Shown here: piece by piece, positions 168-26,820 of the stretch | Layout of the letters: every line of letters begins with the position of its first letter | How positions within the stretch are numbered: position 1 is the first letter of the stretch | Source: a virus | Virus genome (UHGV): UHGV-0019613 | Reading direction: 5' to 3' (one strand) | DNA: 32,421 nucleotides | Translations under genes and position numbers: made by a program | Notes under the pieces: model-generated | Databases searched by the model: none | Told to the model about the DNA's origin: nothing | The model's input: the letters and a program-made list of their open reading frames with translations, nothing else

Positions 168-1163
168 TTATGGACGCATTATGGACATTCCTGACACCGG
201 GTTAAGAGTCACTGCATCTTGTAAGAAATCCGGTGCAAAGTGTGCGTAGGTCATAGTTTGCTGAATGTTAGAATGACCCAGGATGCGCTGCAATGTGATT
301 ATGTTACCTCCATTCATTATAAAATGTGTGGCAAATGTATGCCTCAAAACATGCACTGCCTGTCCGTCAGGTAAATCGGGTTTTACTTCCCTGAGAGCGT
401 TGCGCACTTTGTAGTAACTGGCATTAAAAAGCCTGCCTGAATTTTTGGTCTTGATCCGTTTAATCAGGTCCTGTGAAACGGGAATTGTCCTGCGCTTTCC
501 GTTTTTAGTTTTCATAAACGTAACCATCTGGTTAATGATGTGTTCAGCTTTTAAATTAGACACTTCACTCCAGCGTCCACCAGTAGAAAGGCAGACCAGA
601 GTCGCATTTAATTCATCACCATCGAGCATGGATAACAGCCGTGTAATCTCTTCACTGGACAAAAAAGCCATTTCTGTAACAGCTTCACGTAATCGCTTAA
701 CCTCACGGAACGGGTTGTGAGAATGGTATTCACCGGCGTCAATTAACTTGGTGAACATCCCGCTCATTATTGCCAGATGCCGATTTACGCTGGCTGGTTT
801 TAGACCATCGTTCATCATTACAACGCGATAATCAGTTATCGTTTTCTTTGTTAGCTGGTCAGCTCTGGACACTCCCATTTCTGCAAATTTGGCGATTATT
901 GTCGTCAAACGCCCCCGTTCAATATCTCCACGCTCATGTGATTTTCCGTGATATATCCACCATCTGCCTAACAACTCTGTAAGAGTTCGGCGGTCGGCTG
1001 GCTTCTCCAGCCACTCTTTGTTGTGGTAGTTAACCAGTACATGACGTTCGAATGCTTGAGCTTCACCTTTAGTTTTAAATTTCCGCCTGATACGTTTTCC
1101 ATCTGCACCCTGCGGTCTGACGTCCACTTCATAACGACCATCATCGAGCTTTTTAATAGACAT
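168..1163 (-). CDS. int: Tyrosine site-specific integrase (P2 Int family)
   Basis: 331-aa ORF with N-terminus MSIKKLDDGRYEVDVRP and C-terminal catalytic region HVLRHTFATHF...LGHSNIQQTMTYAHF (R-H-R-Y type); GGAGGG RBS upstream of ATG; first gene inside the att repeat as in P2. Confidence 0.9.
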   Translation of the reverse strand: MSIKKLDDGRYEVDVRPQGADGKRIRRKFKTKGEAQAFERHVLVNYHNKEWLEKPADRRTLTELLGRWWIYHGKSHERGDIERGRLTTIIAKFAEMGVSRADQLTKKTITDYRVVMMNDGLKPASVNRHLAIMSGMFTKLIDAGEYHSHNPFREVKRLREAVTEMAFLSSEEITRLLSMLDGDELNATLVCLSTGGRWSEVSNLKAEHIINQMVTFMKTKNGKRRTIPVSQDLIKRIKTKNSGRLFNASYYKVRNALREVKPDLPDGQAVHVLRHTFATHFIMNGGNIITLQRILGHSNIQQTMTYAHFAPDFLQDAVTLNPVSGMSIMRP

Positions 1164-4026: not shown

Positions 4027-6286
4027 AGCCTCCGGGCGTTTTGTCCCTCCGTCAGCATTTGCCGCAGGCACCGGTAAGGCGTTTACCGGTGCTTATGCAT
4101 GGAATGCGCCACGCGAGGCTGTCGGGCGCGAAAGACCCCTTACACGTGACGAGATGCGTCAGGTGCAAGGTGTTTTATCCACGATTAATCGCCTGCCTTA
4201 CTTTTTGCGCTCGCTGTTTACTTCACGCTATGACTACATCCGGCGCAATAAAAGCCCGTTACACGGGTTTTATTTCCTCACATCCACTTTTCAGCGTCGT
4301 TTATGGCCCCGCATTGAGCGTGTGAATCAGCGCCATGAAATGAACACCGACGCGTCGTTGCTGTTTCTGGCAGAGCGTGACCACTATGCGCGCCTGTCGG
4401 GAATGAATGACAAGGAGCTGAAAAAGTTTGCTGCCCGTATCTCATCGCAGCTTTTCATGATGTATGAGGAACTCTGCGATGCCTGGGTTGATGCACATGG
4501 CGAAAAAGAATCGCTGTTTACGGATGAGGCGCAGGCTCACCTCTATGGTCATGTTGCTGGCGCTGCACGTGCTTTCAATATTTCCCCGCTCTACTGGAAA
4601 AAATACCGTAAAGGGCAGATGACCACGAGGCAGGCATATTCTGCCATTGCCCGTCTGTTTAACGATGAGTGGTGGACTCATCAGCTTAAAGGCCAGCGTA
4701 TGCGCTGGCATGAGGCGTTACTGATTGCTGTCGGGGAGGTCAATAAAGACCGTTCTCCTTATGCCAGTAAACATGCCATTCGTGATGTGCGTGCGCGCCG
4801 CCAGGCAAATCTGGAATTTCTTAAATCGTGTGACCTCGAAAACAGGGAAACCGGCGAACGCATCGACCTTATCAGTAAGGTGATGGGCAGTATTTCTAAT
4901 CCTGAAATTCGCCGGATGGAGCTGATGAACACCATTGCCGGTATTGAGCGTTACGCCGCCGCTGAGGGTGATGTGGGGATGTTTATCACGCTGACCGCGC
5001 CGTCAAAGTATCACCCTACACGTCAGGTTGGAAAAGGTGAAAGTAAAACCGTCCAGCTTAATCACAGCTGGAACGATGAGGCATTTAATCCAAAGGATGC
5101 GCAGCGTTATCTCTGCCGTATCTGGAGCCTGATGCGCACGGCATTCAAGGATAATGATTTACAGGTCTACGGTTTGCGAGTCGTCGAGCCACACCACGAC
5201 GGAACGCCGCACTGGCATATGATGCTTTTTTGTAATCCACGCCAGCGTAACCAGATTATCGACATCATGCGTCGCTATGCGCTCAAAGAGGATGGCGACG
5301 AAAGAGGAGCCGCGCGAAACCGTTTTCAGGCAAAACATCTTAATCGGGGCGGTGCTGCGGGGTATATCGCGAAATACATCTCAAAAAATATCGACGGCTA
5401 TGCACTGGATGGGCAGCTCGATAACGATACCGGCAGACCGCTGAAAGATACTGCCGCGGCTGTTACCGCATGGGCGTCAACGTGGCGCATTCCGCAATTT
5501 AAAACGGTTGGCCTGCCGACAATGGGGGCTTACCGTGAACTACGCAAATTGCCTCGCGGCGTCAGCATTGCTGATGAGTTTGACGAGCGCGTCGAGGCTG
5601 CACGCGCCGCCGCAGACAGTGGTGATTTTGCGCTGTATATCAGCGCGCAGGGTGGGGCAAATGTCCCGCGCGATTGTCAGACTGTCAGGGTCGCCCGTAG
5701 TCCGTCGGATGAAGTTAACGAGTACGAGGAAGAAGTCGAGAGAGTGGTCGGCATTTACGCGCCGCATCTCGGCGCGCGTCATATTCATATCACCAGAACG
5801 ACGGACTGGCGCATTGTTCCGAAAGTGCCGGTCGTTGAGCCTTTGACTTTAAAAAGCGGCATCGCCGCGCCTCGGAGTCCTGTCAATAACTGTGGAAAGC
5901 TCACCGGTAGTGATGTTTCGTTACCGGCTCCCACACCTTCTGAGCACGCCGCCGCAGTGCTTAATCTGGTTGATGACGGTGTTATCGAATGGAATGACCA
6001 GGAGGTCGTGAGGGCGCTCAGGGGCGCATTAAAACACGACCTGAGAACACCAAACCGTCAGCAAAGAAGCGGAAGCCCGTTAAAACCGCATGAAATAGCG
6101 CCATCGGCCAGACTGACCCGGTCGGAACGAATGCAAATTACCCGTATCCGCGTTGACCTTGCTCAGAACGGTATCAGGCCGCAGCGATGGGAGCTTGAGG
6201 CGCTGGCGCGTGGGGCAACTGTAAATTACGACGGGAGAAGCTTCAGTTATCCTGTTATATGTGATTGGAGAGCGTATGAATTATGA
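4016..6286 (+). CDS. A: Rolling-circle replication initiation endonuclease (P2 gpA family)
   Basis: About 756 aa; HUH-type motif TPHWHMMLF and downstream tyrosine-rich region AGYIAKYISKNIDGY; size and position match P2 A. Start could be the TTG at 3974 or the ATG at 4016. Confidence 0.85.
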   Translation: MAVKASGRFVPPSAFAAGTGKAFTGAYAWNAPREAVGRERPLTRDEMRQVQGVLSTINRLPYFLRSLFTSRYDYIRRNKSPLHGFYFLTSTFQRRLWPRIERVNQRHEMNTDASLLFLAERDHYARLSGMNDKELKKFAARISSQLFMMYEELCDAWVDAHGEKESLFTDEAQAHLYGHVAGAARAFNISPLYWKKYRKGQMTTRQAYSAIARLFNDEWWTHQLKGQRMRWHEALLIAVGEVNKDRSPYASKHAIRDVRARRQANLEFLKSCDLENRETGERIDLISKVMGSISNPEIRRMELMNTIAGIERYAAAEGDVGMFITLTAPSKYHPTRQVGKGESKTVQLNHSWNDEAFNPKDAQRYLCRIWSLMRTAFKDNDLQVYGLRVVEPHHDGTPHWHMMLFCNPRQRNQIIDIMRRYALKEDGDERGAARNRFQAKHLNRGGAAGYIAKYISKNIDGYALDGQLDNDTGRPLKDTAAAVTAWASTWRIPQFKTVGLPTMGAYRELRKLPRGVSIADEFDERVEAARAAADSGDFALYISAQGGANVPRDCQTVRVARSPSDEVNEYEEEVERVVGIYAPHLGARHIHITRTTDWRIVPKVPVVEPLTLKSGIAAPRSPVNNCGKLTGSDVSLPAPTPSEHAAAVLNLVDDGVIEWNDQEVVRALRGALKHDLRTPNRQQRSGSPLKPHEIAPSARLTRSERMQITRIRVDLAQNGIRPQRWELEALARGATVNYDGRSFSYPVICDWRAYEL

Positions 6287-6333
6287 GATTGTGATAAAAA
6301 GTAAATAATTAATATAATGCAATTGCTTGACTG

Positions 6334-6372
6334 TTTTAAAAGGGACAACGTAGTTGTGAACTATATTGTCCC
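6334..6372 (-). terminator. Rho-independent terminator candidate for the endonuclease gene (possibly bidirectional)
   Basis: Inverted repeat GGGACAA...TTGTCCC (6342-6372) followed on the minus strand by TTTTAAAA; lies between convergent A and endonuclease genes. Confidence 0.45.
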
Positions 6373-6379
6373 GGGAGTA

Positions 6380-7435
6380 TTAATTTTTAAATATGGATTG
6401 TATGTATTCTATAGTGCTATCTTTAGCTCTGATGTCTTTTAAAGTGTTATTTATGAAATCTATTATTCTGTCATTACTTAATAGTGGCGATAACGCATAA
6501 CATGTTGTTGTGAATGTCATGACGTCACTAAAGCTTAGTGAAACACCTTTTGTCGCAGCGTTCTCAATCGCAAGAGACTCATCAATATCTAAGTTTGTTG
6601 CTCTTGGCCCTTTAAGGAAGATAACTTTTGAAATCCCGGATGCAGATGCTTTTGAAACGGCGTGATTAACATCTTGATAATTAAATGGTTTGTCTTTCAC
6701 TTCTATAGAAAGGAAAACTATATCATCATGATATACATCTATGTCCAGTATCTCTTTTGAGGAGCTACCGGCCTGATTGACGGGATGTGCTTTTATTATC
6801 CATCCTCTTTGTTCACCTAATAAATGTAACGAAATTGCGGCAGCAATCGCGCATGTTTCTCCATCACAAGGATGAGATATAATATTATAAATAATCTTAT
6901 GGAAATCAAAATTAATTGAGTTCGGCGTTATAACTCTATTGGTTCGCTGTAGGGTAAAATATAATGCAATAACAAGCATTTCATAAGCTAAGGTTTGGGT
7001 TGTTGCTGCATGTAATATATCAATTGAAAGTTGTTGTAAAACCTTATCATTTCCTCTGCGCACAGGGTTATCAGAGGAGTGGAGCATGTAACGAGCTGGT
7101 TTATTTAGAAATGGCTCATTTGATGCGCCTAACTTACCCTCTAAAAATGGGCCTTCTACTTTGCCTACTATTACCGAATGACATAAACTCCTTGCATCAT
7201 AGGCTCCGTCTACGGGGGCATTAGCTTGTAAAGCCAGAGGGTTAACTCTAGGGTCTGTTGCTTTTGCAAGTAAACCAGTAATAAGTATATATCTGTATGT
7301 AAGGTGGGTGCCTAAAATTACATTTTGAATGGAGACCCATTGATTATTTGTTTTGTAATCAGTTAATTTTTTTGCATCGTTGATTGCATTTATAATTACA
7401 TTATAGGCTTGCTCATGATTTACTAATACTTTCAT
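6380..7435 (-). CDS. Candidate Type II restriction endonuclease (PD-(D/E)xK-like)
   Basis: 351-aa ORF in AT-rich cargo; D-x7-E-x-K-like motif in YHDDIVFLSIEVKDK; co-oriented with and overlapped by an upstream small HTH gene and divergent from a C5-methyltransferase; AAGGA RBS before ATG 7435. Confidence 0.55.
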   Translation of the reverse strand: MKVLVNHEQAYNVIINAINDAKKLTDYKTNNQWVSIQNVILGTHLTYRYILITGLLAKATDPRVNPLALQANAPVDGAYDARSLCHSVIVGKVEGPFLEGKLGASNEPFLNKPARYMLHSSDNPVRRGNDKVLQQLSIDILHAATTQTLAYEMLVIALYFTLQRTNRVITPNSINFDFHKIIYNIISHPCDGETCAIAAAISLHLLGEQRGWIIKAHPVNQAGSSSKEILDIDVYHDDIVFLSIEVKDKPFNYQDVNHAVSKASASGISKVIFLKGPRATNLDIDESLAIENAATKGVSLSFSDVMTFTTTCYALSPLLSNDRIIDFINNTLKDIRAKDSTIEYIQSIFKN

Positions 7436-7682
7436 AGGTGTCCTTTAGTAAGATATCCATTGGTAGACCTAATCGGCTTGCAACCACCTCTAATAATTCA
7501 AATAGTTCTAAAGCATCTAATCGCCTTTCAAAGCTTTCGATTTTAGATATATCTGATTGTGATAATCCTAGAAAAATGGCCAATTCTGACTGCGAAAGAG
7601 AAGCTTCTTTGCGTAGTTTGGTGAGAAGCTGGACTAGGCACCTGTATCTATGATCATGTATAGTTGGTTGTCGTTTTGCCAT
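7413..7682 (-). CDS. Small HTH controller (C-protein-like, XRE family) of the R-M module
   Basis: About 90 aa from ATG 7682 (alternative ATG at 7727); HTH segment LSQSELAIFLGLSQSDISKIE; its 3' end overlaps the endonuclease start by 23 nt, the arrangement typical of C-regulated R-M operons. Confidence 0.55.
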   Translation of the reverse strand: MAKRQPTIHDHRYRCLVQLLTKLRKEASLSQSELAIFLGLSQSDISKIESFERRLDALELFELLEVVASRLGLPMDILLKDTYESISKS

Positions 7683-7702
7683 GTGGTTTAGAAGGTGATT
7701 GA

Positions 7703-8857
7703 TTGTGTGTCGATCCTTACCTATCATTGGTTTTATTCCAAAATCGAATAATTGGTGCTAAAGAAGTGAACAAAATTTCAGCGGTGAGCTTATTTACTGG
7801 GGCAGGAGGGATGGATGTCGGTTTCTCTAATGCCGGGTTCCGAACAGTTTGGGCCAATGATATAGATAAGGATGCATGTGATACATTTAAGCTTAATCAT
7901 GAATCACCTGTTTTTTGTGGTGATATTGATGAGATGCTAAGTGAATTGTCTGGGCTGAAAAATATAGGTTGTGTTTTTGGTGGGCCTCCATGCCAAGGAT
8001 TTTCTGTGGCAGGGAAAATGGACGCTCATGATCCACGTAGTAAGCTGGTTATGTCATTCATGCGGGCGGTGGATATAATTCAACCAGAATGCTTTGTTAT
8101 GGAGAATGTTAAGGCTTTAGCACAGTTGTCCAAATTTGAACCAGTTAGGTGTGAACTGTTTAAGATGGCTGAAAAGTCAGGCTATCGTTCAGCCTTGCTG
8201 GTGCTGAATTCTAAAGATTTTGGCGTTCCTCAGAATAGGGAACGTATGTTTTTTATAGGGTTTCGTTCCGAAAATGATGTGAAACGAGTTGAGGCGGCGA
8301 TAAAAAAATACCAATATCTTTCGCCAACAGTTGGTGAGATTATTCGGCCTTTAGGGCGAGCGGGTAATCCAAATAATTCAAGAGTCTGTAATGCAAGGAT
8401 TACAAATGCTGCTAAGCCAGTATTACGGAAGTCACCTTACGCGGGAATGATGTTTAACGGGCAGGGAAGACCAATTAACCCGAATGGGTATGCTTCAACT
8501 ATAGCTGCTTCTATGGGGGGGAATAGGACACCAATTATTGATGAAGAACACCTTTATGATGGCTCAACAAGTTATGTTGAGACTTATCATAATCATCTAA
8601 TGAATGGTGGTGAGCCAAAAGATATGCACGATGTACCTAGTCGTTTACGTCGACTAACGATAGATGAGGCTCTTTTGATTCAAACATTCCCGAGTAATTA
8701 TGTCTTTGTGGGGAAAAATTCGTCAATTTGGCGTCAGATAGGGAATGCTGTGCCTTGTAAATTGGCGCAGGCTGTTGCTGCAGGGGTTTTGGATGTCCTT
8801 ACTGGTAAAACTATTAATGTTCAAAAGAGTCAAACAGAGTTGAGTTTGAATTCGTAA
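7703..8857 (+). CDS. DNA (cytosine-5)-methyltransferase
   Basis: Canonical m5C MTase motifs: FTGAGGMDVGF (motif I), GGPPCQGFS (motif IV), ENV (motif VI), QNRERMFFIG (motif VIII), GNAVP (motif X); start is a TTG at 7703 with AAGGTGA RBS, exact start uncertain. Confidence 0.85.
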   Translation: MCVDPYLSLVLFQNRIIGAKEVNKISAVSLFTGAGGMDVGFSNAGFRTVWANDIDKDACDTFKLNHESPVFCGDIDEMLSELSGLKNIGCVFGGPPCQGFSVAGKMDAHDPRSKLVMSFMRAVDIIQPECFVMENVKALAQLSKFEPVRCELFKMAEKSGYRSALLVLNSKDFGVPQNRERMFFIGFRSENDVKRVEAAIKKYQYLSPTVGEIIRPLGRAGNPNNSRVCNARITNAAKPVLRKSPYAGMMFNGQGRPINPNGYASTIAASMGGNRTPIIDEEHLYDGSTSYVETYHNHLMNGGEPKDMHDVPSRLRRLTIDEALLIQTFPSNYVFVGKNSSIWRQIGNAVPCKLAQAVAAGVLDVLTGKTINVQKSQTELSLNS

Positions 8858-9013
8858 AACGGATCACATTTTCAAACCGATGGATGCAGAATTTAACATT
8901 GCTGCATGAGTTTGCATCTTGAAATCATAAGCTGTACTGCTTGGCTTGACCAGAATTGATGTGGGTAAGAAGTGGTTATGCACCCGCATTAAAACCGCCC
9001 CATTAAGCGGGCG

Positions 9014-9032
9014 GGCGAGGCGGGGAAAGCAC
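9014..9032. other. P2-type cos cohesive-end sequence (GGCGAGGCGGGGAAAGCAC)
   Basis: 19-nt string matches my recollection of the P2 cohesive end, and sits between the A-side cargo and Q exactly where cos lies in a P2 prophage. Confidence 0.55.
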
Positions 9033-9174
9033 TGCGCGCTGACGGTGGTGCTGATTTTATTTTTTCAGCGTCTGAGCGCGTCGTGATGGCGTTTAGATTG
9101 TGCGCCGGGGCGTTGGTGTGTCTGCGGGGTGTTTTGTGCGGTGGTGAGCGTGTGAGGGCGTGATGACGGGATGT

Positions 9175-20874: not shown

Positions 20875-22992
20875 ATGAACACAAAATTCAGAACCGTTAT
20901 CACCACTGCCGGTGCAGCAAAGCTGGCAGCGGCAACCGCACCGGGAGGGCGGAAGGTCAACATTACCACGATGGCCGTCGGGGATGGCGGTGGTAAATTG
21001 CCTGTCCCGGATGCCGGACAGACCGGGCTTATCCACGAAGTCTGGCGACATACGCTGAACAAAATCAGCCAGGACAAACGAAACAGTAATTATATTATCG
21101 CAGAGCTGGTTATTCCGCCGGAGGTGGGCGGTTTCTGGATGCGTGAGCTTGGCCTGTACGATGATGCGGGAACATTAATTGCCGTGGCGAACATGGCCGA
21201 AAGTTATAAGCCAGCTCTTGCCGAAGGCTCAGGGCGTTCGCAGACCTGTCGCATGGTCATCATCGTCAGCAGTGTGGCCTCAGTGGAGCTGACCATTGAC
21301 ACCACAACAGTGATGGCGACGCAGGATTACGTTGATGACAAAATTGCAGAGCATGAACAGTCACGACGTCACCCTGACGCCTCGCTGACCGCAAAAGGTT
21401 TTACTCAGTTAAGCAGTGCGACCAACAGCACGTCTGAAACACTCGCCGCAACACCAAAAGCGGTAAAAGCAGCATATGACCTTGCTAACGGGAAATACAC
21501 TGCACAGGATGCCACCACCGCACGAAAAGGCCTTGTCCAGCTCAGTAGCGCCACCAACAGCGATTCTGAAACGCTTGCGGCAACGCCAAAGGCGGTAAAG
21601 GCCGCGTATGACCTTGCTAACGGGAAATACACTGCACAGGATGCCACTATAGCGCGAAAAGGTCTTGTCCAGCTCAGTAGCGCCACCAACAGTGATTCTG
21701 AAATGCTGGCCGCGACATCAAAAGCGGTGAAGTCTGCCAATGACAATGCTGAAAAACGTCTTCAGAAAGATCAGAACGGTGCGGATATTCCTGATAAAGA
21801 ACGCTTCTTGAGTAACATTAATGTTTACAGCAAAGGTGAAGTGGATAAGAAAAAGGGAATGCGAAAGTATTCGTTTGCAGCCCCTGCAAATGTCGTTGCC
21901 GGGAAGTGGTATCCCGTTATCTTTCGCCGTGCTGCCAGCCTTTCAGGAGAAATGGCTTCCCGCGTCGTTATTTCCACTGGTTGTTATAACAGCGATTATG
22001 TAATGAATAACTGCGAGTTTAATGGCATGGTTATGCCCGGAGGCTGGACTGATCGTGGTTCTTATGCGGCAGGTTACTTCTGGACGTATCAGACTAATGA
22101 GCGTTCAATCCATTCCATTGTTACAAGCCTGAAAGATGATGATGTATGTAGTGTTTTTTATGTTGAAGCCAGAGCTTTCCCTGTACAAATTCTTGCAGAG
22201 GAAGGGCTAACGGTTATTGTTCCGACAGAGGATTATGTCGTCGGTCAAACGACATATAAGTGGGGGGCAACTAATCCCGCTACAGAAAGCACGAACGCAC
22301 AGGCTATTCTGGATTTTAAAAATGGACGTGGTTATTACTGTTCACATCCATTTATTTCCAGCCTTTCAGGAAATGCTGCAACAGCAACGAAGTTAGCGAA
22401 CGCAAGAAATATTAATGGTGTCAGATTTGATGGCTCTGCCGATATAAATATTAATACACTGGTATCCAGAAACCGTGTTACTGCATTAGGTGGGAGCGTA
22501 AAGGGGACACCAGGTATTCAGATGTATGAGGCATACAACAATGGCTACCCAACAGCCTATGGTAATGTGCTTCATCTCACTGGTGTAACCGCAGTAGGAG
22601 AGGGTGAGTTACTTATTGGCTGGAGTGGAACCAGCGGTGCTCATGCTCCGGCATATATTCGCTCCCGACGAGATACCACAGATGCTAACTGGTCTGGATG
22701 GGCGCAACTATATACAACTGCTCATAAACCCTCAGCGGGAGATGTTGGTGCATACACCAAAGCTGAGTCAGATTCACGTTATGTGAGAGACATGCGGCTG
22801 GGCGGTGCATCTACATATAAACCAGCAAATAATGGTACTACATGGACGCATCAGGCTCCGTCAGGTTGCGTATATACCGGCATTATTGTTCAGGATACCG
22901 GCTCAAACTCTGCCGATAACATTGGTGGCGTATATTACAGACCGGTGCAGAAATACATTAACGGGACATGGTATAACGTGGCGCAGGTATAA
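20875..22992 (+). CDS. H: Tail fibre protein
   Basis: 705 aa; conserved P2 H-like N-terminus (FRTVITTAGAAKLAAA) and C-terminal YINGTWYNVAQV; internal tandem repeats. Confidence 0.85.
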   Translation: MNTKFRTVITTAGAAKLAAATAPGGRKVNITTMAVGDGGGKLPVPDAGQTGLIHEVWRHTLNKISQDKRNSNYIIAELVIPPEVGGFWMRELGLYDDAGTLIAVANMAESYKPALAEGSGRSQTCRMVIIVSSVASVELTIDTTTVMATQDYVDDKIAEHEQSRRHPDASLTAKGFTQLSSATNSTSETLAATPKAVKAAYDLANGKYTAQDATTARKGLVQLSSATNSDSETLAATPKAVKAAYDLANGKYTAQDATIARKGLVQLSSATNSDSEMLAATSKAVKSANDNAEKRLQKDQNGADIPDKERFLSNINVYSKGEVDKKKGMRKYSFAAPANVVAGKWYPVIFRRAASLSGEMASRVVISTGCYNSDYVMNNCEFNGMVMPGGWTDRGSYAAGYFWTYQTNERSIHSIVTSLKDDDVCSVFYVEARAFPVQILAEEGLTVIVPTEDYVVGQTTYKWGATNPATESTNAQAILDFKNGRGYYCSHPFISSLSGNAATATKLANARNINGVRFDGSADININTLVSRNRVTALGGSVKGTPGIQMYEAYNNGYPTAYGNVLHLTGVTAVGEGELLIGWSGTSGAHAPAYIRSRRDTTDANWSGWAQLYTTAHKPSAGDVGAYTKAESDSRYVRDMRLGGASTYKPANNGTTWTHQAPSGCVYTGIIVQDTGSNSADNIGGVYYRPVQKYINGTWYNVAQV
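21397..21750 (+). repeat. Tandem 132-bp (44-aa) repeat inside tail fibre gene H, two near-identical copies plus a diverged third
   Basis: GFTQLSSATNS(T/D)SETLAATPKAVKAAYDLANGKYTAQDAT(T/I)ARK repeated with period 132 nt (for example GACCTTGCTAACGGG at 21478 and 21610). Confidence 0.7.
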
Positions 22993-22995
22993 TTT

Positions 22996-23523
22996 ATGCA
23001 GCATTTAAAAAATATTACGGCGGGTAATCCAAAAACGGTTGAACAATATCAATTGACAAAGAATTTTGATGTTGTCTGGTTTTTTTCAGAAGATGGTAAG
23101 AACTGGTACGAAGAACAAAAGTATTTTGCTGATAACACGATAAAAATAGCGTACGACAAAGATAATATCATCCACTATGTGGAAAAGGATGTGACAGCTA
23201 TCAGACCGGAGGGATTAAGTGTTGTTGAAGTGGCGGATATTACTGCTAACCGACGGGCGGATATTTCAGGGAACTGGATGTTTAAGGATGGCACAGTGAT
23301 CAAACGAATTTATACGGCAGAGGAATTGCAACAGCAGGCAGAAAACAGGAAAGCCAGACTTCTTGCAGATGCTGAATCCGTGATTTTGCCGCTGGAGCGC
23401 GCTGTCAGGCTGAATATGGCAACAGAGGAGGAGCGTAGCAGACTGGAAAGATGGGAACGCTACAGCGTTCTGGTCAGTCGTGTGGATCCTGCAAATCCTG
23501 AATGGCCAGAAATGCCGCAATAA
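22996..23523 (+). CDS. G: Tail fibre assembly chaperone
   Basis: 175 aa, same as P2 G; directly follows H. Confidence 0.8.
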
Positions 23524-23558
23524 GTTGTATGAGTTCTGGTGGGAGTTTACATATCTAT

Positions 23559-23608
23559 GGCACAGAGTAAAGCCTAATCTGACAGTCCGCTCTGTGCCAG
23601 GAGCGGAC
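23559..23608 (+). other. Two overlapping, mutually exclusive hairpins downstream of G
   Basis: GGCACAGAG (23559-23567) pairs with CTCTGTGCC (23590-23598); alternatively GTCCGCTC (23585-23592) pairs with GAGCGGAC (23601-23608); no T-tract follows. Confidence 0.4.
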
Positions 23609-23817
23609 ATCCCACACTTCTGCTTCTGTGGCCAAAATCCGTATGCCACTACACTGCTGGCTTTTTAAGCGGCATTAATCATATGGCTTCCTATGAATAC
23701 GAAGGGTAAAATGGATAGGTATACGCTATAGAATTATGTATATGCTACATATACCAACAACGAAAGCAGGTTGCAAAGCAGCCTGTATAATCATCACTTA
23801 AGTTCATGGAATAAAAT

Positions 23818-25119
23818 ATGCATACTGGCTTTAAGGGAACTTATGACGCACTTTTGAGGCTTGAGAAGGCTATAGAAGGTCTGACCATCCAAGATGGGTT
23901 GATGACGAATACTCTTGGAGTTGAGGTTCCGGCAATAACATCAGATGACCTAATTGACCAAATAATTTGCATTATTAACAAGCTGAAAGCATATGGTGAT
24001 ATTGAACTAACTGAAAAAGAAATTGTCGCTTATTCATCTCTCCCTGAAAAAATTGACACACTCATTAAAGTTCACGTCCCAGAGTTCTCAGGCGTTAACT
24101 CCGCACGAGCTATATCTTCATATATGCTAACACTGGCATATGTTGACCATTTCTTGGATGAATCGTTTACATGGAAGCGGTTGGATAATGCTAATTTACT
24201 TCCTAGAAATTTAAGCAGAAAAATTAAAAGCATGGAGGCGAGAATTAACAAGATTGATCCTGAGATGGATGCTCTTGAGAGTAAAGTTAAAACGATTAAT
24301 GATGCTCATGTAGCTGCAGAAAATATACCTATAGACTTAAATGAATTAAAGGAATACAACAAAGAAGCATCTGATTTAAAGGAGAAGATATCTAAAACTC
24401 ATTTCAGTTTAGAGTCCCAAGAAGAAGCTGCAAAAAAAATTATTGATGAGTTGCAAGAAAAAAATATAGAGGCTGCCCGGTATCTGGCTCTTTGCGAAGA
24501 GGCTATTAGGGCTTCAACATCGAAAGGCTTAGCAGGAGCATTTGAAATAAAAGCAGATAAGCTTAACCGAAGTATCCAACTATGGGTTGCCGGTTTGGCA
24601 GTTGCTTTGGGGCTTGGTGGTTTAGTCGGATATGAAAGATTGAAAGTTCTTTCTGGGGTTTTGAATAACCCAAATCCCAGTGCGGTAGTAATACTCACTC
24701 AATTACTATTATCTGTTTTTAGCATAGGCGCCCCTCTTTGGTTTGCTTGGATGTCTACAAAACAAATTAATCAACGTTTCAAACTCGCAGAGGATTATGC
24801 TTATAAAGCTTCTGTGGCTAAAGCGTATGAGGGATACAAAAATGAGGCATGCAAGGTATCAGATGGAGAGTTCGAAAAACGCTTATTTGATTCTGCGCTA
24901 AGTCGACTTGAAGAGGCTCCATTGCGTTTTGTGAAAGATGAAGATCATACTACTCCTTGGACAGAAATGCTTAATTCTAAGTCGTTTCAAAAATTCTTAG
25001 ATGCCTCCATTGATAATGTAAATTATGTTAAAGGGATTATAAGTAAGAAAGGCCAATCAGCAGCTAAAGCAAGCAATGATGAGGTTAATCACATTGAAAA
25101 ACTAAAGAATGAAGCTTGA
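23818..25119 (+). CDS. Uncharacterised cargo protein: coiled-coil N-terminal region, two central transmembrane helices, soluble C-terminal domain; candidate defence/abortive-infection effector
   Basis: 433-aa uninterrupted ORF in a by-eye AT-rich island at the P2 Z/fun locus; hydrophobic stretches about residues 254-272 (IQLWVAGLAVALGLGGLVGY) and 288-312 (AVVILTQLLLSVFSIGAPLWFAWM); TATAAT 27 nt upstream; tandem terminators downstream; no Walker A or nuclease motif recognised. Confidence 0.75.
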   Translation: MHTGFKGTYDALLRLEKAIEGLTIQDGLMTNTLGVEVPAITSDDLIDQIICIINKLKAYGDIELTEKEIVAYSSLPEKIDTLIKVHVPEFSGVNSARAISSYMLTLAYVDHFLDESFTWKRLDNANLLPRNLSRKIKSMEARINKIDPEMDALESKVKTINDAHVAAENIPIDLNELKEYNKEASDLKEKISKTHFSLESQEEAAKKIIDELQEKNIEAARYLALCEEAIRASTSKGLAGAFEIKADKLNRSIQLWVAGLAVALGLGGLVGYERLKVLSGVLNNPNPSAVVILTQLLLSVFSIGAPLWFAWMSTKQINQRFKLAEDYAYKASVAKAYEGYKNEACKVSDGEFEKRLFDSALSRLEEAPLRFVKDEDHTTPWTEMLNSKSFQKFLDASIDNVNYVKGIISKKGQSAAKASNDEVNHIEKLKNEA

Positions 25120-25130
25120 ATTATAATACT

Positions 25131-25153
25131 GCCTCCGCAAGTGCGAGGCTTTT
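25131..25153 (+). terminator. Rho-independent terminator immediately after the cargo gene
   Basis: GCCTCCGCA-AG-TGCGAGGC hairpin followed by TTTT. Confidence 0.55.
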
Positions 25154-25160
25154 ACATTAA

Positions 25161-25189
25161 CTGCCCTGCAGTAAATCTAGGGCAGTTTT
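25161..25189 (+). terminator. Second tandem terminator-like hairpin
   Basis: CTGCCCT...AGGGCAG (7-bp stem, 11-nt loop) followed by TTTT. Confidence 0.5.
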
Positions 25190-25506
25190 ACGTGCTAGGG
25201 GCTGAGTTGGCTAACCGGCTCTTTCAGCAGTCGGTCTGCCGCTATTGAGCTGGGGCTCAACGTGTGTGAGAACGTCAGATTCAATACGTAGGTATGGCCT
25301 CACTCCTTATTTGAGCACTCGCAATACAGAGAGTTAAAGTGATCGCCTTTCGGTACTGATCTGCGAATGACTTTGGGGGATTTGCACTCAGGGGAGAGTA
25401 ACTTCGTGACAACTTCCGCTCTTAGCTAAAAGCAGACTGTCAGATTTGATAGCGTTTCGGCAATGTAAATAGTCAGTCGGAAAATGAGTGTGTACAAGTC
25501 AGGACA

Positions 25507-25530
25507 GGCGGGCTGATTTCCCGCCTTTTC
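25507..25530 (+). terminator. Terminator-like hairpin upstream of the FI late promoter region
   Basis: GGCGGG-CTGATTT-CCCGCC followed by TTTTCTTTAT. Confidence 0.45.
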
Positions 25531-25629
25531 TTTATCTGTTGTTTCATCCCCTGACCAGCCAGGTCAAATAGCGTCTCATGTACTACCCAACGGAAAATAG
25601 TTGCACCCATTAACCACGGAGTTAAACGG

Positions 25630-26820
25630 ATGAGTGACTATCATCACGGCGTGCAGGTGCTGGAGATTAACGACGGCACCCGCGTCATTTCCACCGTATC
25701 CACGGCTATTGTCGGCATGGTCTGCACGGCCAGCGATGCGGATGCGGAAACCTTCCCCCTCAATAAACCGGTGCTGATTACCAATGTGCAGAGCGCAATT
25801 GCAAAGGCCGGTAAAAAAGGCACGCTGGCGGCATCGTTGCAGGCCATCGCCGACCAGTCAAAACCGGTCACCGTTGTCGTGCGTGTGGAAGACGGCACCG
25901 GCGAAGACGAAGAAACGAAACTCGCGCAGACTGTTTCCAATATCATCGGAACCACCGACGAAAACGGTCAGTACACCGGACTGAAAGCCCTGCTGGCGGC
26001 GGAGTCGGTAACCGGTGTTAAACCACGAATTCTCGGCGTACCGGGACTGGACACCAAAGAGGTGGCTGTTGCACTGGCATCAGTCTGTCAGAAGCTGCGT
26101 GCTTTCGGATATATCAGCGCATGGGGCTGTAAGACCATTTCCGAGGTGAAAGCCTACCGCCAGAATTTCAGCCAGCGTGAACTGATGGTTATCTGGCCGG
26201 ATTTCCTCGCATGGGATACGGTCACCAGTACCACCGTCACCGCGTATGCCACCGCCCGTGCGCTGGGTCTGCGTGCAAAAATCGACCAGGAGCAGGGCTG
26301 GCATAAAACGCTGTCCAACGTCGGGGTAAACGGTGTTACCGGCATCAGTGCCTCTGTATTCTGGGATTTGCAGGAGTCCGGCACCGATGCTGACCTGCTT
26401 AACGAGTCTGGCGTCACTACGCTGATTCGCCGCGACGGTTTCCGCTTCTGGGGTAACCGTACCTGCTCTGATGACCCGCTGTTCCTCTTTGAAAACTACA
26501 CCCGCACCGCGCAGGTGCTGGCCGACACGATGGCTGAGGCGCACATGTGGGCGGTGGACAAGCCCATCACCGCAACGCTGATTCGCGACATCGTTGACGG
26601 CATCAATGCCAAATTCCGTGAGCTGAAAACAAACGGCTATATCGTGGACGCGACCTGCTGGTTCAGTGAAGAATCCAACGATGCGGAAACCCTCAAGGCC
26701 GGAAAACTGTATATCGACTACGACTATACCCCGGTGCCTCCTCTTGAAAACCTGACCCTGCGCCAGCGTATTACCGATAAATACCTGGCAAATCTGGTCA
26801 CCTCGGTTAACAGCAATTAA
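25630..26820 (+). CDS. FI: Tail sheath protein
   Basis: 396 aa, same as P2 FI. Confidence 0.9.
   Translation: MSDYHHGVQVLEINDGTRVISTVSTAIVGMVCTASDADAETFPLNKPVLITNVQSAIAKAGKKGTLAASLQAIADQSKPVTVVVRVEDGTGEDEETKLAQTVSNIIGTTDENGQYTGLKALLAAESVTGVKPRILGVPGLDTKEVAVALASVCQKLRAFGYISAWGCKTISEVKAYRQNFSQRELMVIWPDFLAWDTVTSTTVTAYATARALGLRAKIDQEQGWHKTLSNVGVNGVTGISASVFWDLQESGTDADLLNESGVTTLIRRDGFRFWGNRTCSDDPLFLFENYTRTAQVLADTMAEAHMWAVDKPITATLIRDIVDGINAKFRELKTNGYIVDATCWFSEESNDAETLKAGKLYIDYDYTPVPPLENLTLRQRITDKYLANLVTSVNSN

Follow-up and report, generated by a model that had tools for sequence, protein, structure and literature searches.

The region between genes G and FI of the P2-like Escherichia coli prophage sequence UHGV-0019613 (analysed over a window of 32,421 nucleotides, the full length of the stretch) carries a single cargo gene encoding a 433-aa protein, and the best reading of this gene is that it specifies a single-protein, membrane-acting abortive-infection defence, an interpretation that we put forward tentatively. 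The protein is not an orphan: sequence comparisons indicate that it belongs to a large unnamed family, and its closest known relatives by architecture appear to be AbiZ/Pfam DUF6161 and DS-34, to which the linking sequence signals are marginal. On mobile elements, and at both P2 hotspots, homologues of the protein are found as lone cargo genes.

The G-FI cassette

The open reading frame (ORF) starts with ATG and was found exactly where the initial annotation had placed it, and the chance of a 433-codon open frame at such a base composition is ~4e-15. No further credible ORF was detected in the cassette, in agreement with its earlier description as holding a sole cargo gene. Assignment of the locus to the P2 G-FI (Z/fun) hotspot, where three validated defence systems plus fun have been described (Vassallo et al. 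2022, PMC9519451), was likewise correct; the G-FI locus of P2-like phages is also treated as a defence hotspot in PMC13586616 and in the iLund4u preprint. The 2.1-kb interval separating G from FI has a 100% identical counterpart in E. coli SWHEFF_58, within a P2-like prophage on which RefSeq annotates G and FI and lists the 433-aa ORF as a 'hypothetical protein'. Feature coordinates are collected in Table 1.

Table 1. Features of the G-FI interval and of the 433-aa protein, in window coordinates
Feature	Position	Strand	Basis or remark
Gene G, tail-fibre assembly	22996-23523		5' neighbour of the 433-aa ORF
Left arm of imperfect inverted repeat	23576..23607		32 nt, 81% complementary to 25415-25446
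Cargo cassette, ~1.8 kb	23611..25414		Between conserved P2 segments 3' of G and 5' of FI
Perfect TATAAT hexamer	23786..23791	+	27 nt 5' of the ATG; read from the sequence
433-aa ORF, sole cargo gene	23818..25119	+	Predicted inner-membrane protein, both ends cytoplasmic (hydropathy, AF2 model, 146 representatives)
N-terminal all-helical domain, aa 1-125	23818..24192	+	Least conserved folded part; candidate sensor
Long helix/coiled coil, aa 130-250	24205..24567	+	Continues into TM1
A7 homopolymer, codon 214	24458..24464	+	Alignment with NZ_AP022049 and NZ_CP190018
TM1, aa 253-272	24574..24633	+	Kyte-Doolittle hydropathy
TM2, aa 288-311	24679..24750	+	Kyte-Doolittle hydropathy
Most conserved part, predicted cytoplasmic helices, aa 312-370	24751..24927	+	
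Two terminator-like hairpins, both with a trailing U run	25131-25149 and 25159-25187	+	First begins 12 nt past the stop codon; RNA fold and reading of the sequence
Non-coding 3' part of cassette	25188..25414		Always accompanies the gene
Right arm of imperfect inverted repeat	25415..25446		Corresponds to the 'right inverted repeat' of AJ512685
Gene FI, sheath	25630-26820		3' neighbour of the 433-aa ORF

Alignment with the Z-regions of P2-EC30 and P2-EC67 showed that identity is lost after ~23610 and regained at ~25415. The cassette thus bounded has a GC content of 0.397 compared with 0.55 for the backbone on either side, which bears out the AT-rich island previously noted by eye; the ORF itself has a GC content of 0.378, with a third-position value of 0.30 versus 0.67 in FI. 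The inverted repeats at the cassette edges are those known for the G-FI locus, the left arm falling inside the feature that AJ512676 and AJ512685 label 'left inverted repeat'. Among 5,426 complete E. coli genomes the whole interval occurs in 19 and the flanks alone in 1,360, while phage records (P2, Wphi, L-413C and others) match the flanks only, at 14% coverage. The ORF shares with P2 fun(Z) and with the PD systems its slot, its inverted-repeat borders and its small size as cargo; it has no sequence similarity to them or to another described G-FI cargo gene, and none of the PADLOC PD-T4, PD-T7 and PD-lambda models matched the 433-aa protein.

Regulatory signals within the cassette were few. 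The TATAAT hexamer upstream of the start codon is possibly part of a promoter belonging to the ORF itself, one that would function without a good -35 element; a consensus scan upstream of the ORF called no promoter, and nothing convincing emerged that could drive expression in the lysogen. Neither the consensus scan nor reading of the sequence revealed a canonical terminator in the stretch from G to the ORF. Downstream of the gene, the region with the two hairpins (25131..25187) folds as RNA at -25.1 kcal/mol (z = -1.8), and the consensus scan did not list these hairpins. Segment 25195-25412, within the non-coding 3' part, was present in the same 19 E. coli genomes as the gene and in no others, and the cassette contained no Rfam match.

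The gene is frequently disrupted, with 8 of the 19 copies in complete E. coli genomes affected. In many strains a one-base deletion in the A7 tract splits it into ORFs of 216 and 174 aa, and >300 contigs carry the resulting products (P0122 and P0123). The disruption of 8 of 19 copies fits a costly toxin but also a dispensable gene.

Protein architecture and conservation

The two hydrophobic helices that the initial annotation had located at about residues 254-272 and 288-312 were recovered by Kyte-Doolittle hydropathy at 253-272 and 288-311. None of the 146 family representatives examined lacks either segment, and the intervening loop has 14-20 residues. Its account of the flanking regions held in part. 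Of the ~250-aa coiled-coil N-terminus, the stretch from ~130 to 250 is indeed coiled-coil-like, whereas residues 1-125 form a helical bundle in the AF2 model (helices spanning 3-124, block pLDDT 80-94); of the ~120-aa C-terminal soluble domain, only residues 312-370 are both conserved and confidently helical, pLDDT dropping below 50 at residues 363-381 and from 397 onward. The AF2 model is that of a monomer with a pTM of 0.35 and carries no information on pores. Family, sequence and fold searches found no catalytic signature, as had been claimed.

Conservation is low at the N-terminus and very high in the membrane module. Residues 1-125 score 1.1-1.8 bits per column, and a profile search with this domain alone retrieved fragments of the same family only, with no fusion to other effectors. 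A single helix runs from residue 130 to 282 in the AF2 model; its 130-250 portion bears the conserved motif I160-x2-A163...P171-x-D-L-x2-L177 and a juxtamembrane motif, T-S/T-x-G-L-A-x-x-F (234-242), and residues 120-240 matched generic coiled-coil families only. Within TM1, the small-residue zipper G259/A263/G267/G271 is occupied by G, A or S in 77%, 94%, 94% and 99% of the 146 representatives, respectively, and W256, L260 and L264 are nearly invariant. TM2 has a polar position in mid-membrane, residue 295, which is N, Q or H in 117 of the 146 sequences, followed by the motif S302-x-G-A-P-x-W-F-A-W, in which P306 is conserved in 97% and W308 and W311 in 100%. With its conserved stripe resembling a glycine zipper and its polar residue inside the membrane, the hairpin is evidently more than a membrane anchor. 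The loop joining the helices, predicted to face the periplasm, is among the least conserved stretches (1.25-1.7 bits). Beyond TM2, conservation reaches 3.3-3.9 bits per column at 301-340 and 361-370, dipping to 2.6-2.8 at 341-360, and residues 312-370 contain the motif T-K-Q-I-x-Q-R-F-x-L-A-E-D-Y-A-F-K-A-S-V-A-K-A-Y-E-G-Y ... R-L-E-E-A-P-L-R.

Family size and distribution

No named family in Pfam, NCBIfam, PADLOC or the PDB sequences claims the 433-aa protein, so that the earlier statement to this effect stands; matches to Tropomyosin, SMC, Rad50, DruC and LmuB in scans of these collections were coiled-coil noise. In PHROGs the protein falls in PHROG 34659 (full-length match, 1013 bits), which is annotated 'unknown function', as is PHROG 30912, with which it has residues 179-407, the membrane module, in common (E 8.8e-12). 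A literature search by accession number returned nothing. The family comprises 2,190 clusters at 50% identity (E<=1e-3) from several phyla, with a constant architecture. A search of the C-terminal module also returned many proteins of ~300 aa, but these do not amount to a new architecture in at least the Pseudomonas syringae case, where the gene is broken into two parts (159 + 299 aa).

The distribution of the family is rare and patchy. In a collection with one genome per species (~185,000 species) there were 207 confirmed matches, with homologues in Proteobacteria, Bacteroidota, Leptospira, Verrucomicrobiota and other groups. Homologues were present on 74 IMG/VR viral contigs, and among 50,697 phage records searched with tblastn there was one distant homologue only, in a temperate Providencia phage.

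Genomic context of homologues

At ~27 loci, homologues lie directly upstream of the portal gene Q, which is the other P2 hotspot (old/tin), and these have 33-65% identity; the G-FI position contained near-identical copies only. This pattern suggests that the gene moves between the P2 hotspots as a unit. Further homologues were found on one integrative mobilisable element and on 17 plasmids. When the neighbours of 153 loci were clustered, no conserved partner gene emerged and only P2 core genes recurred, which argues that the family acts as a single-gene unit. The 148 ORFs lying within two genes of chromosomal homologues included five integrases and strong PADLOC matches to type I restriction-modification, AbiU, Old, PD-T4-2, AbiEi, DrmD, NsnA, PbeA and type IV restriction enzymes. 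Enrichment of defence genes near homologues was tenfold or more, a rough figure obtained against an unmatched background in which ~0.65% of proteins have a PADLOC hit. Ordinary chromosomal settings were also encountered: a homologue in Luteimonas adjoins recBCD, and one in Cronobacter is surrounded by housekeeping genes.

Comparison with known systems

AbiZ of Lactococcus lactis confers a premature lysis phenotype and is thought to act through the holin (PMC13064643, PMC6356687). As with the 433-aa protein, it is a single-gene, mobile-element-borne product without a fold match in the PDB; it is an Abi protein whose N-terminal domain is predicted in a review to be separate. The family has the AbiZ-type architecture, in which an N-terminal helical/coiled-coil part precedes a two-TM hairpin, followed on the C-terminal side by a conserved segment predicted to be cytoplasmic. 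The family differs from AbiZ in its length of ~430 aa, with an extra 125-aa N-terminal helical domain, and in its occurrence in Gram-negative bacteria and Bacteroidota, whereas the AbiZ-labelled UniRef50 cluster of DefensePredictor comes from Bacillota. AbiZ is included in Pfam DUF6161 (PF19658), and this was the sole Pfam family matched recurrently, by 7 of 54 module sequences at E<=0.1 (best E 3.8e-6), every other Pfam family being matched by three or fewer of the 54. The one DUF6161 match that was mapped, a weaker one, scored 21.3 bits, below the PF19658 gathering score of 27 bits, and covered profile positions 101-206 of 216, spanning TM1 to the post-TM2 helix (R-L-E-E-A-P). For the 433-aa protein itself there was no match to DUF6161 at E<=1, and PADLOC models including those for AbiZ gave only coiled-coil noise (DruC, LmuB) at the same threshold; RefSeq named no homologue DUF6161.

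DS-34 of DefensePredictor, listed there as validated, consists of the 323-aa E. coli protein WP_000377448.1 with a CI-like repressor. It resembles the family in being cargo of P2-like prophages and in its layout, a coiled coil at 77-142 being followed by a two-TM hairpin at 184-237 and this by a cytoplasmic tail that is conserved. The DS-34 table places DUF6161 at 178-281, and the region of DUF6161 matched by both the family and DS-34 is the two-helix membrane hairpin plus the segment after it. In hhalign, a comparison of the family with the DS-34 family (including plasmid relatives) gave a probability of 31% and an E of 5e-4 over 69 columns, with the hairpins in register from before TM1 through TM2 only; against the single DS-34 sequence the E value was 0.095, and HMMER detected no similarity between the family and DS-34. 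The two differ after TM2, where DS-34 has S-K-K-Y-T-H-E-S-I-R-R-K-D-R-x-H-A...D-W-N and the family has A-E-D-Y-A-F-K-A-S-V-A-K-A-Y-E-G-Y...R-L-E-E-A-P-L-R, and DS-34, unlike the family, is a two-gene unit. The occurrence of both on one prophage contig (L099/L177) points to distinct systems.

SLATT effectors, which belong to CBASS, retrons and further conflict systems, combine a two-TM hairpin with a cytoplasmic helical part and are predicted to be membrane-disrupting death effectors. The family has the same combination of hairpin and cytoplasmic helices, a resemblance in possible mode of action, and one weak Foldseek match to a viral SLATT protein was obtained (E 0.088). The Pfam SLATT_1-5/DUF4231 models matched neither the 433-aa protein (E<=1) nor any of 18 modules (E<=10), and SLATT was absent among the 25 most frequent of the 35 families matched by 54 modules (E<=0.1). 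Unlike SLATT systems, the family has no associated nucleotide-signalling enzyme, and the 153 loci and the N-terminal domain search showed no conserved association with SMODS/CD-NTase, SLOG, TIR or reverse-transcriptase partners. Holin, antiholin and spanin families in Pfam, PHROGs and NCBIfam gave no match, and there was no significant fold or sequence match to membrane machines of the MotA/ExbB/ZorA or CorA type.

Proposed mechanism and alternative explanations

The analysis establishes the gene, the topology features of its product, the pattern of conservation, the family and the behaviour as cargo of mobile elements and defence hotspots; the anti-phage role of the protein, its oligomerisation, sensing by its N-terminus and permeabilisation of the membrane are what we infer. 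Under the proposed mechanism, the prophage would carry a single-protein anti-phage system as exchangeable cargo, and the protein would span the inner membrane as a hairpin of two helices, its two large parts lying on the cytoplasmic side. Detection of an infection cue, perhaps a phage protein or a membrane/holin event, would fall to the variable N-terminal helical domain, and the long coiled-coil helix, running straight into TM1, would link this sensor domain to the hairpin. The hairpin, with its TM1 zipper and its N/Q/H in TM2, together with the cytoplasmic helices after TM2, may then assemble or open an oligomeric lesion that depolarises or permeabilises the membrane and so aborts the infection, as proposed for AbiZ with its premature lysis.

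Several observations make the abortive-infection or exclusion function proposed in the initial annotation more plausible, namely the solitary-cargo habit in both P2 hotspots and on other mobile elements, the known defence genes beside some homologues, the pairing of a variable N-terminus with a highly conserved membrane module, and an architecture that matches AbiZ/DUF6161-type proteins. An anti-phage role is further favoured by the position of the ORF as sole gene of a low-GC cassette with its own terminator-like hairpins, by the standing of the G-FI locus as a validated defence hotspot of P2-like phages, and by the rarity and patchiness of the family. The same reading is weakened by the failure of the 433-aa protein to match PADLOC or DUF6161, by the restriction of the DS-34 match to the hairpin, by the ordinary chromosomal neighbourhoods of some homologues and by the want of a convincing lysogen promoter.

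Those chromosomal homologues also lend themselves to an accessory function outside defence, in which the protein would be a membrane scaffold or channel, linked to lysogenic conversion or to stress, whose benefit to the host is unrelated to phage. P2 hotspots are known to house partition systems and cytolethal distending toxin as well (PMC9122126), and a defence database (PADLOC) does not recognise the protein. The family is nevertheless patchy, rare and tied to mobile elements, recurs in two defence hotspots, has restriction-modification and Abi genes nearby at several loci, and combines a variable N-terminus with a conserved effector-like module in the usual pattern of immune proteins, so that we regard a non-defence function as unlikely, if the strongest of the competing accounts. 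Genome entry is blocked by prophage membrane proteins such as P22 SieA, T4 Imm and HK97 gp15, and a single-gene, predicted inner-membrane protein carried as prophage cargo at the locus of P2 fun(Z) might similarly exclude superinfecting phages by blocking entry of the incoming genome into the lysogen without killing the cell. This is improbable on the present evidence: the part facing the periplasm is only the short, poorly conserved loop, the conserved mass is predicted to be cytoplasmic, the protein is far bigger than typical exclusion proteins, and its frequent inactivation suggests a cost.

Least probable, and very much so, is an antiholin-like or holin-accessory modulator of the prophage's own lysis timing that would serve P2 itself. 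The suggestion draws on AbiZ, the closest architectural analogue, being thought to work through the holin, and on the placement of the gene downstream of a late operon with no canonical terminator after G. It is at odds with the presence of the gene in only 19 of ~1,360 E. coli genomes that have this P2 backbone, with the homologues on plasmids and non-phage elements, and with the complete P2 lysis module elsewhere in the same prophage, whose holin, endolysin, LysB and LysC genes are located away from the 433-aa ORF.

The abortive-infection reading can be extended to the family as a whole, a broader proposal in which we have somewhat less confidence. The proteins would form a hitherto unnamed family that crosses phyla, with at least 2,000 clusters (50% identity) and no more than a very distant relationship to AbiZ; each would be a membrane immune sensor made of one protein and built around a conserved glycine-zipper hairpin pore gated by a cue. 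A diversifying cytoplasmic helical domain would read the phage cue, a rigid coiled-coil helix continuous with TM1 would gate the pore, and the cassette would be exchanged among plasmids, integrative elements and both of the P2 hotspots.

Significance

The conserved positions provide precise targets for mutagenesis, namely G267, G271, N/Q/H295, W308, W311, E325-D326-Y327 and Y337-E338-G339-Y340, and the presence of one cargo family in both P2 hotspots bears on how cassettes are exchanged. This gene of a P2-like E. coli prophage is a good candidate for a defence that acts by membrane-mediated killing of the infected cell. If it proves protective, a large defence family missed by Pfam, NCBIfam and PADLOC 2.0, and spanning Proteobacteria, Bacteroidota, spirochaetes and other phyla, would be added to those known, and 'membrane clock' defence of the AbiZ type, which is little understood, would be extended to Gram-negative bacteria.

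Results

The window is a P2-like prophage that, over 23524-25629, matches E. coli SWHEFF_58 (NZ_CP055048) at 100% identity. The RefSeq gene order there is P2-typical on both sides of a hypothetical protein, with baseplate genes, the H tail fibre and the G assembly protein before it and the FI sheath and FII tube after it. The initial annotation had described a single long ORF in an AT-rich island as the only cargo between G and FI, and every element of that description held. The 433-aa ORF is real (the chance of an open frame as long, at its own base composition, is ~4e-15); GC is 0.397 for the cassette (23611-25414) and 0.378 for the ORF versus 0.55 for the backbone on both sides, with a GC3 of 0.30 for the ORF versus 0.67 for FI; and the cassette holds no second credible ORF. 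Alignment to the 'Z-region' records of P2-EC30 and P2-EC67 placed the cassette borders at ~23610, where backbone identity stops, and ~25415, where it returns, and the bracketing repeat arms correspond to the inverted repeats that those records annotate as left and right. Because the same repeats bracket unrelated cargo in P2-EC30 and P2-EC67, it is suggested that they mark exchange points of the G-FI hotspot. The arms are part of the conserved backbone, the left one with a perfect 8-bp stem (GTCCGCTC...GAGCGGAC).

Positions of features in the window and of segments in its 433-aa protein
Feature	Position	Strand	Remarks
433-aa ORF	23818-25119	+	ATG start
Imperfect inverted repeat	23576-23607 vs 25415-25446		32 nt, 81% complementary; brackets cassette
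TATAAT, perfect	27 nt 5' of ATG		No good -35 element
A8 tract	24432-24439		Within ORF
A7 tract	24458-24464		Codon 214
Two hairpins	25131-25149, 25159-25187		U run after each; first begins 12 nt past stop codon
3' non-coding DNA	25188-25414		~230 nt
'SIR2 family protein', 864 aa	~5359-7953	-	A-Q hotspot
Small hypothetical ORF	~8411-8680	+	A-Q hotspot
Small hypothetical ORF	~8673-9143	+	A-Q hotspot
Helical bundle	aa 3-124		AlphaFold2, pLDDT 80-94
Single long helix	aa 130-282		AlphaFold2; continues straight into TM1, short loop after
Helix	aa 289-346		AlphaFold2; TM2 and conserved segment
Helix	aa 350-364		AlphaFold2; low-confidence tail beyond
Conservation	N-terminal domain		1.1-1.8 bits per column
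Conservation	aa 161-180		2.4 bits per column
Conservation	aa 231-260		2.5-3.1 bits per column
Conservation	aa 301-340, 361-370		3.3-3.9 bits per column
Conservation	aa 341-360		2.6-2.8 bits per column
Conservation	beyond aa 400		<1.2 bits per column

The cassette was present in 19 of 5,426 complete E. coli genomes and the flanking backbone in 1,360. No promoter was called by the scan at the TATAAT upstream of the ORF. The non-coding DNA 3' of the two terminator-like hairpins accompanies the gene in 19/19 genomes; its segment 25195-25412 was found in the same 19 E. coli genomes and nowhere else in E. coli, with no Rfam match and no credible ORF. GC of the entire 3' region (25120-25414) was 0.49, above that of the ORF. 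Many E. coli/Shigella copies have a one-base deletion in the A7 tract, which leaves a 216-aa ORF, stopping short of the TM hairpin, and a 174-aa ORF. The gene is split in 7 of the 19 complete genomes (two verified at the sequence level) and interrupted by IS1 in one, and split products occur on >300 contigs; the deletion could mean that a costly gene is decaying or that it is switched on and off by strand slippage. In Pseudomonas syringae pv. actinidiae (loci L014-L017) the homologue is spread over two ORFs 40 nt apart, one of 159 aa that is equivalent to the N-terminal domain and one of 299 aa that encodes the coiled coil and membrane module. The 299-aa product was found on at least 117 contigs, and the split represents either a frameshift that has become fixed or a natural two-gene form.

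The window protein is far from an orphan: by word-indexed search it has >1,076 relatives, nearly all of 420-470 aa and none with a Pfam domain. When 1.84 billion representative proteins were searched exhaustively with an HMM, 2,190 clusters matched at E<=1e-3 (547 at E<=1e-30), the best 150 of which were nearly all co-linear and full-length. The distribution is rare and patchy: a scan in which each species was represented by a single genome confirmed 207 matches, in Gamma-, Beta- and Alphaproteobacteria, Bacteroidota, Leptospira, Verrucomicrobiota, Acidobacteriota and Nitrospirota. Relatives were present on 74 viral contigs (IMG/VR) and on 17 plasmids (PLSDB), annotated as 'hypothetical protein' in all of the latter; in a set of 50,697 sequenced phages, the sole carrier is Providencia phage PSTCR8lys. 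The family corresponds to phrog_34659 (PHROGs, unknown function), and the related phrog_30912 has only the membrane module in common with it. More distant subfamilies retain the module and have exchanged the N-terminal domain for a plain coiled coil; a search with the N-terminal domain found no fusion of it to another effector.

Hydropathy analysis (Kyte-Doolittle) identified two hydrophobic segments, TM1 (aa 253-272) and TM2 (aa 288-311), bearing out the two helices of the initial annotation. Both are kept in 146/146 family representatives (mean hydropathy 1.78 and 1.42; loop of 14-20 residues). Lys+Arg counts of 2.2 and 2.9 in the flanks and 1.8 in the loop mildly favour a topology with both termini cytoplasmic, with which the 250-aa N-terminal part, apparently without a signal peptide, would be consistent. 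An AlphaFold2 model (116 input sequences; mean pLDDT 74.9, pTM 0.35) has the helical elements given in the table, and conservation along the protein is strongly uneven (see table). TM1 has a small-residue stripe at i+4 spacing (G/A/S at 259, 263, 267 and 271 in 77%, 94%, 94% and 99% of sequences), beside which W256, L260 and L264 are nearly invariant; in TM2, 80% of sequences have a polar N/Q/H at 295, after which comes S302-x-G-A-P-x-W-F-A-W, its two tryptophans invariant. By comparison with established glycine-zipper motifs, such features would be those with which helices pack against one another in membrane oligomers. The conserved stripe, polar residue and TM2 motif argue for a functional role of the hairpin beyond anchoring.

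In a scan of the membrane modules of 54 diverse members, DUF6161 (PF19658) was the sole recurrent Pfam family (7/54, best E 3.8e-6), every other family matching at most 3/54 with far weaker E-values. One DUF6161 match, when mapped, began at TM1, ended at the R-L-E-E-A-P motif and covered profile positions 101-206 of 216; its score was 21.3 bits versus a cut-off of 27. DUF6161 is relevant because, in the DefensePredictor supplementary tables (Science 2026, PMC13092281), the UniRef50 cluster that bears the label of DefenseFinder's AbiZ model has the name 'DUF6161 domain-containing protein'. The same tables give as validated the DS-34 system, in which a CI-like repressor is paired with WP_000377448.1, a protein of 323 aa with a coiled coil at 77-142, TM helices at 184-237 and an HHpred DUF6161 match at 178-281. 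AbiZ, a lactococcal Abi protein, makes cells lyse prematurely, probably in concert with the phage holin; according to its review it has no PDB fold match, and none was found for the window protein (PMC13064643, PMC6356687 for AbiZ). In a separate preprint, a DUF6161 family of Pseudomonadota scores highly as a defence candidate.

The architecture is clearly common to AbiZ/DS-34 and the window family. HMMER detected no similarity between the window family and DS-34; hhalign gave E 0.095 against the single DS-34 sequence and, against an alignment of eight DS-34 relatives built from a viral contig and plasmid records, a probability of 31% and E 5e-4 over 69 columns. This match aligns the pre-TM1 region, TM1, loop and TM2 in register and ends at TM2, past which the conserved cytoplasmic motifs of DS-34 are unlike those of the window family. 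Given the absence of HMMER similarity, the weak match and the differing motifs, the family may belong to the AbiZ/DUF6161 superfamily, but membership is unproven. The initial annotation had placed the protein in no named family; it is in fact a member of a large family that is still unnamed, and it has an architectural analogue in AbiZ/DS-34 with a marginal sequence link. One P2-like viral contig (IMGVR_UViG_2913167280_000013) has, in its A-Q hotspot, a paralogue sharing 65% identity with the window protein (L099) and, near the contig end, a DS-34 pair of CI-like repressor and AbiZ/DUF6161-like two-TM protein (L177); the two are thus separate systems, here stacked as membrane-hairpin candidates in a single prophage. 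On Sinorhizobium sp. M14 plasmid pSinB (L183, 1003-1935), a 310-aa protein annotated as TIR domain-containing, adjoining a patatin-like phospholipase gene, has a DS-34-type two-TM module at its C-terminus; no description of such a fusion was found in the literature searched. The fusion supports an effector or membrane-targeting role for modules of the DS-34 type.

Across 153 loci there was no conserved neighbour gene, P2 core genes alone recurring. In ~27 loci with P2 core proteins mapped, a homologue (33-65% identity to the window protein) lies directly upstream of portal gene Q, with gene A on its other side wherever the flank reaches so far; the site between A and Q is the classical old/tin hotspot. 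The G-FI position holds near-identical copies only (L098, L100, L102). Thus, one cargo family occupies both P2 defence hotspots. Other homologues lie in an integrative mobilisable element of Stenotrophomonas (with integrase, MobA and TraD), a small prophage remnant of Enterobacter, and ordinary-looking chromosomal sites in Luteimonas and Cronobacter. Among 148 ORFs at most two genes away from chromosomal, non-P2 homologues, Pfam identified five integrases and three ResIII helicases, and strong PADLOC matches comprised type I restriction enzymes/methylases, AbiU, Old, PD-T4-2_A, NsnA, AbiEi, DrmD, PbeA and type IV restriction enzymes. Relative to the ~0.65% of RefSeq proteins marked by PADLOC, PADLOC matches are enriched roughly tenfold or more, on an approximate count of distinct proteins and against an unmatched, RefSeq-wide baseline.

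The A-Q hotspot of the window prophage is itself low in GC (0.37-0.43 over 6001-9000), and its SIR2 protein and two small ORFs, with coordinates carried over from RefSeq's entry for the identical genome, are likely a second defence cargo. The 3' part of H together with G (22000-23523) has a GC of 0.45, below the backbone, and G is just 77% identical in the L098 and L102 prophages, the rest of which is 96-100% identical; both observations fit the receptor-binding module swapping reported beside the G-FI hotspot (iLund4u preprint). A 360-aa subfamily with the membrane module and a pure coiled-coil N-terminus is encoded between YqaJ-like exonuclease and RecT genes on 11 phage contigs (L155-L165, IMG/VR gut metagenomes), a recombination module being an unusual site for cargo.

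Discussion

The sequence analysis establishes the gene, its topology features, its pattern of conservation, the family's size and its behaviour as cargo; the anti-phage role, trigger, oligomerisation and permeabilisation are inferred. An anti-phage function of some kind is somewhat more likely than not for the window protein, and the best-supported specific reading, which we hold tentatively, is abortive infection by a single protein that acts on the membrane. In this reading, a trigger would be sensed by the cytoplasmic N-terminal domain, the coiled-coil helix would couple it rigidly into TM1, and the conserved hairpin and post-TM2 helices would be the effector, possibly oligomerising and compromising the membrane by permeabilisation. 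The initial annotation had proposed either such an effector or superinfection exclusion; its observation is confirmed and its interpretation supported in part. Exclusion is improbable, a reading weakened by the tiny and poorly conserved periplasmic loop. A non-defence accessory membrane protein is unlikely, though less so than exclusion, and modulation of the prophage's own lysis is very improbable.

Uncharacterised candidates are known to abound in P2 hotspots, with 110 unique proteins counted in hotspot 1 alone (Vassallo et al., PMC9519451). To a specialist, the window protein would be a good candidate and no surprise.
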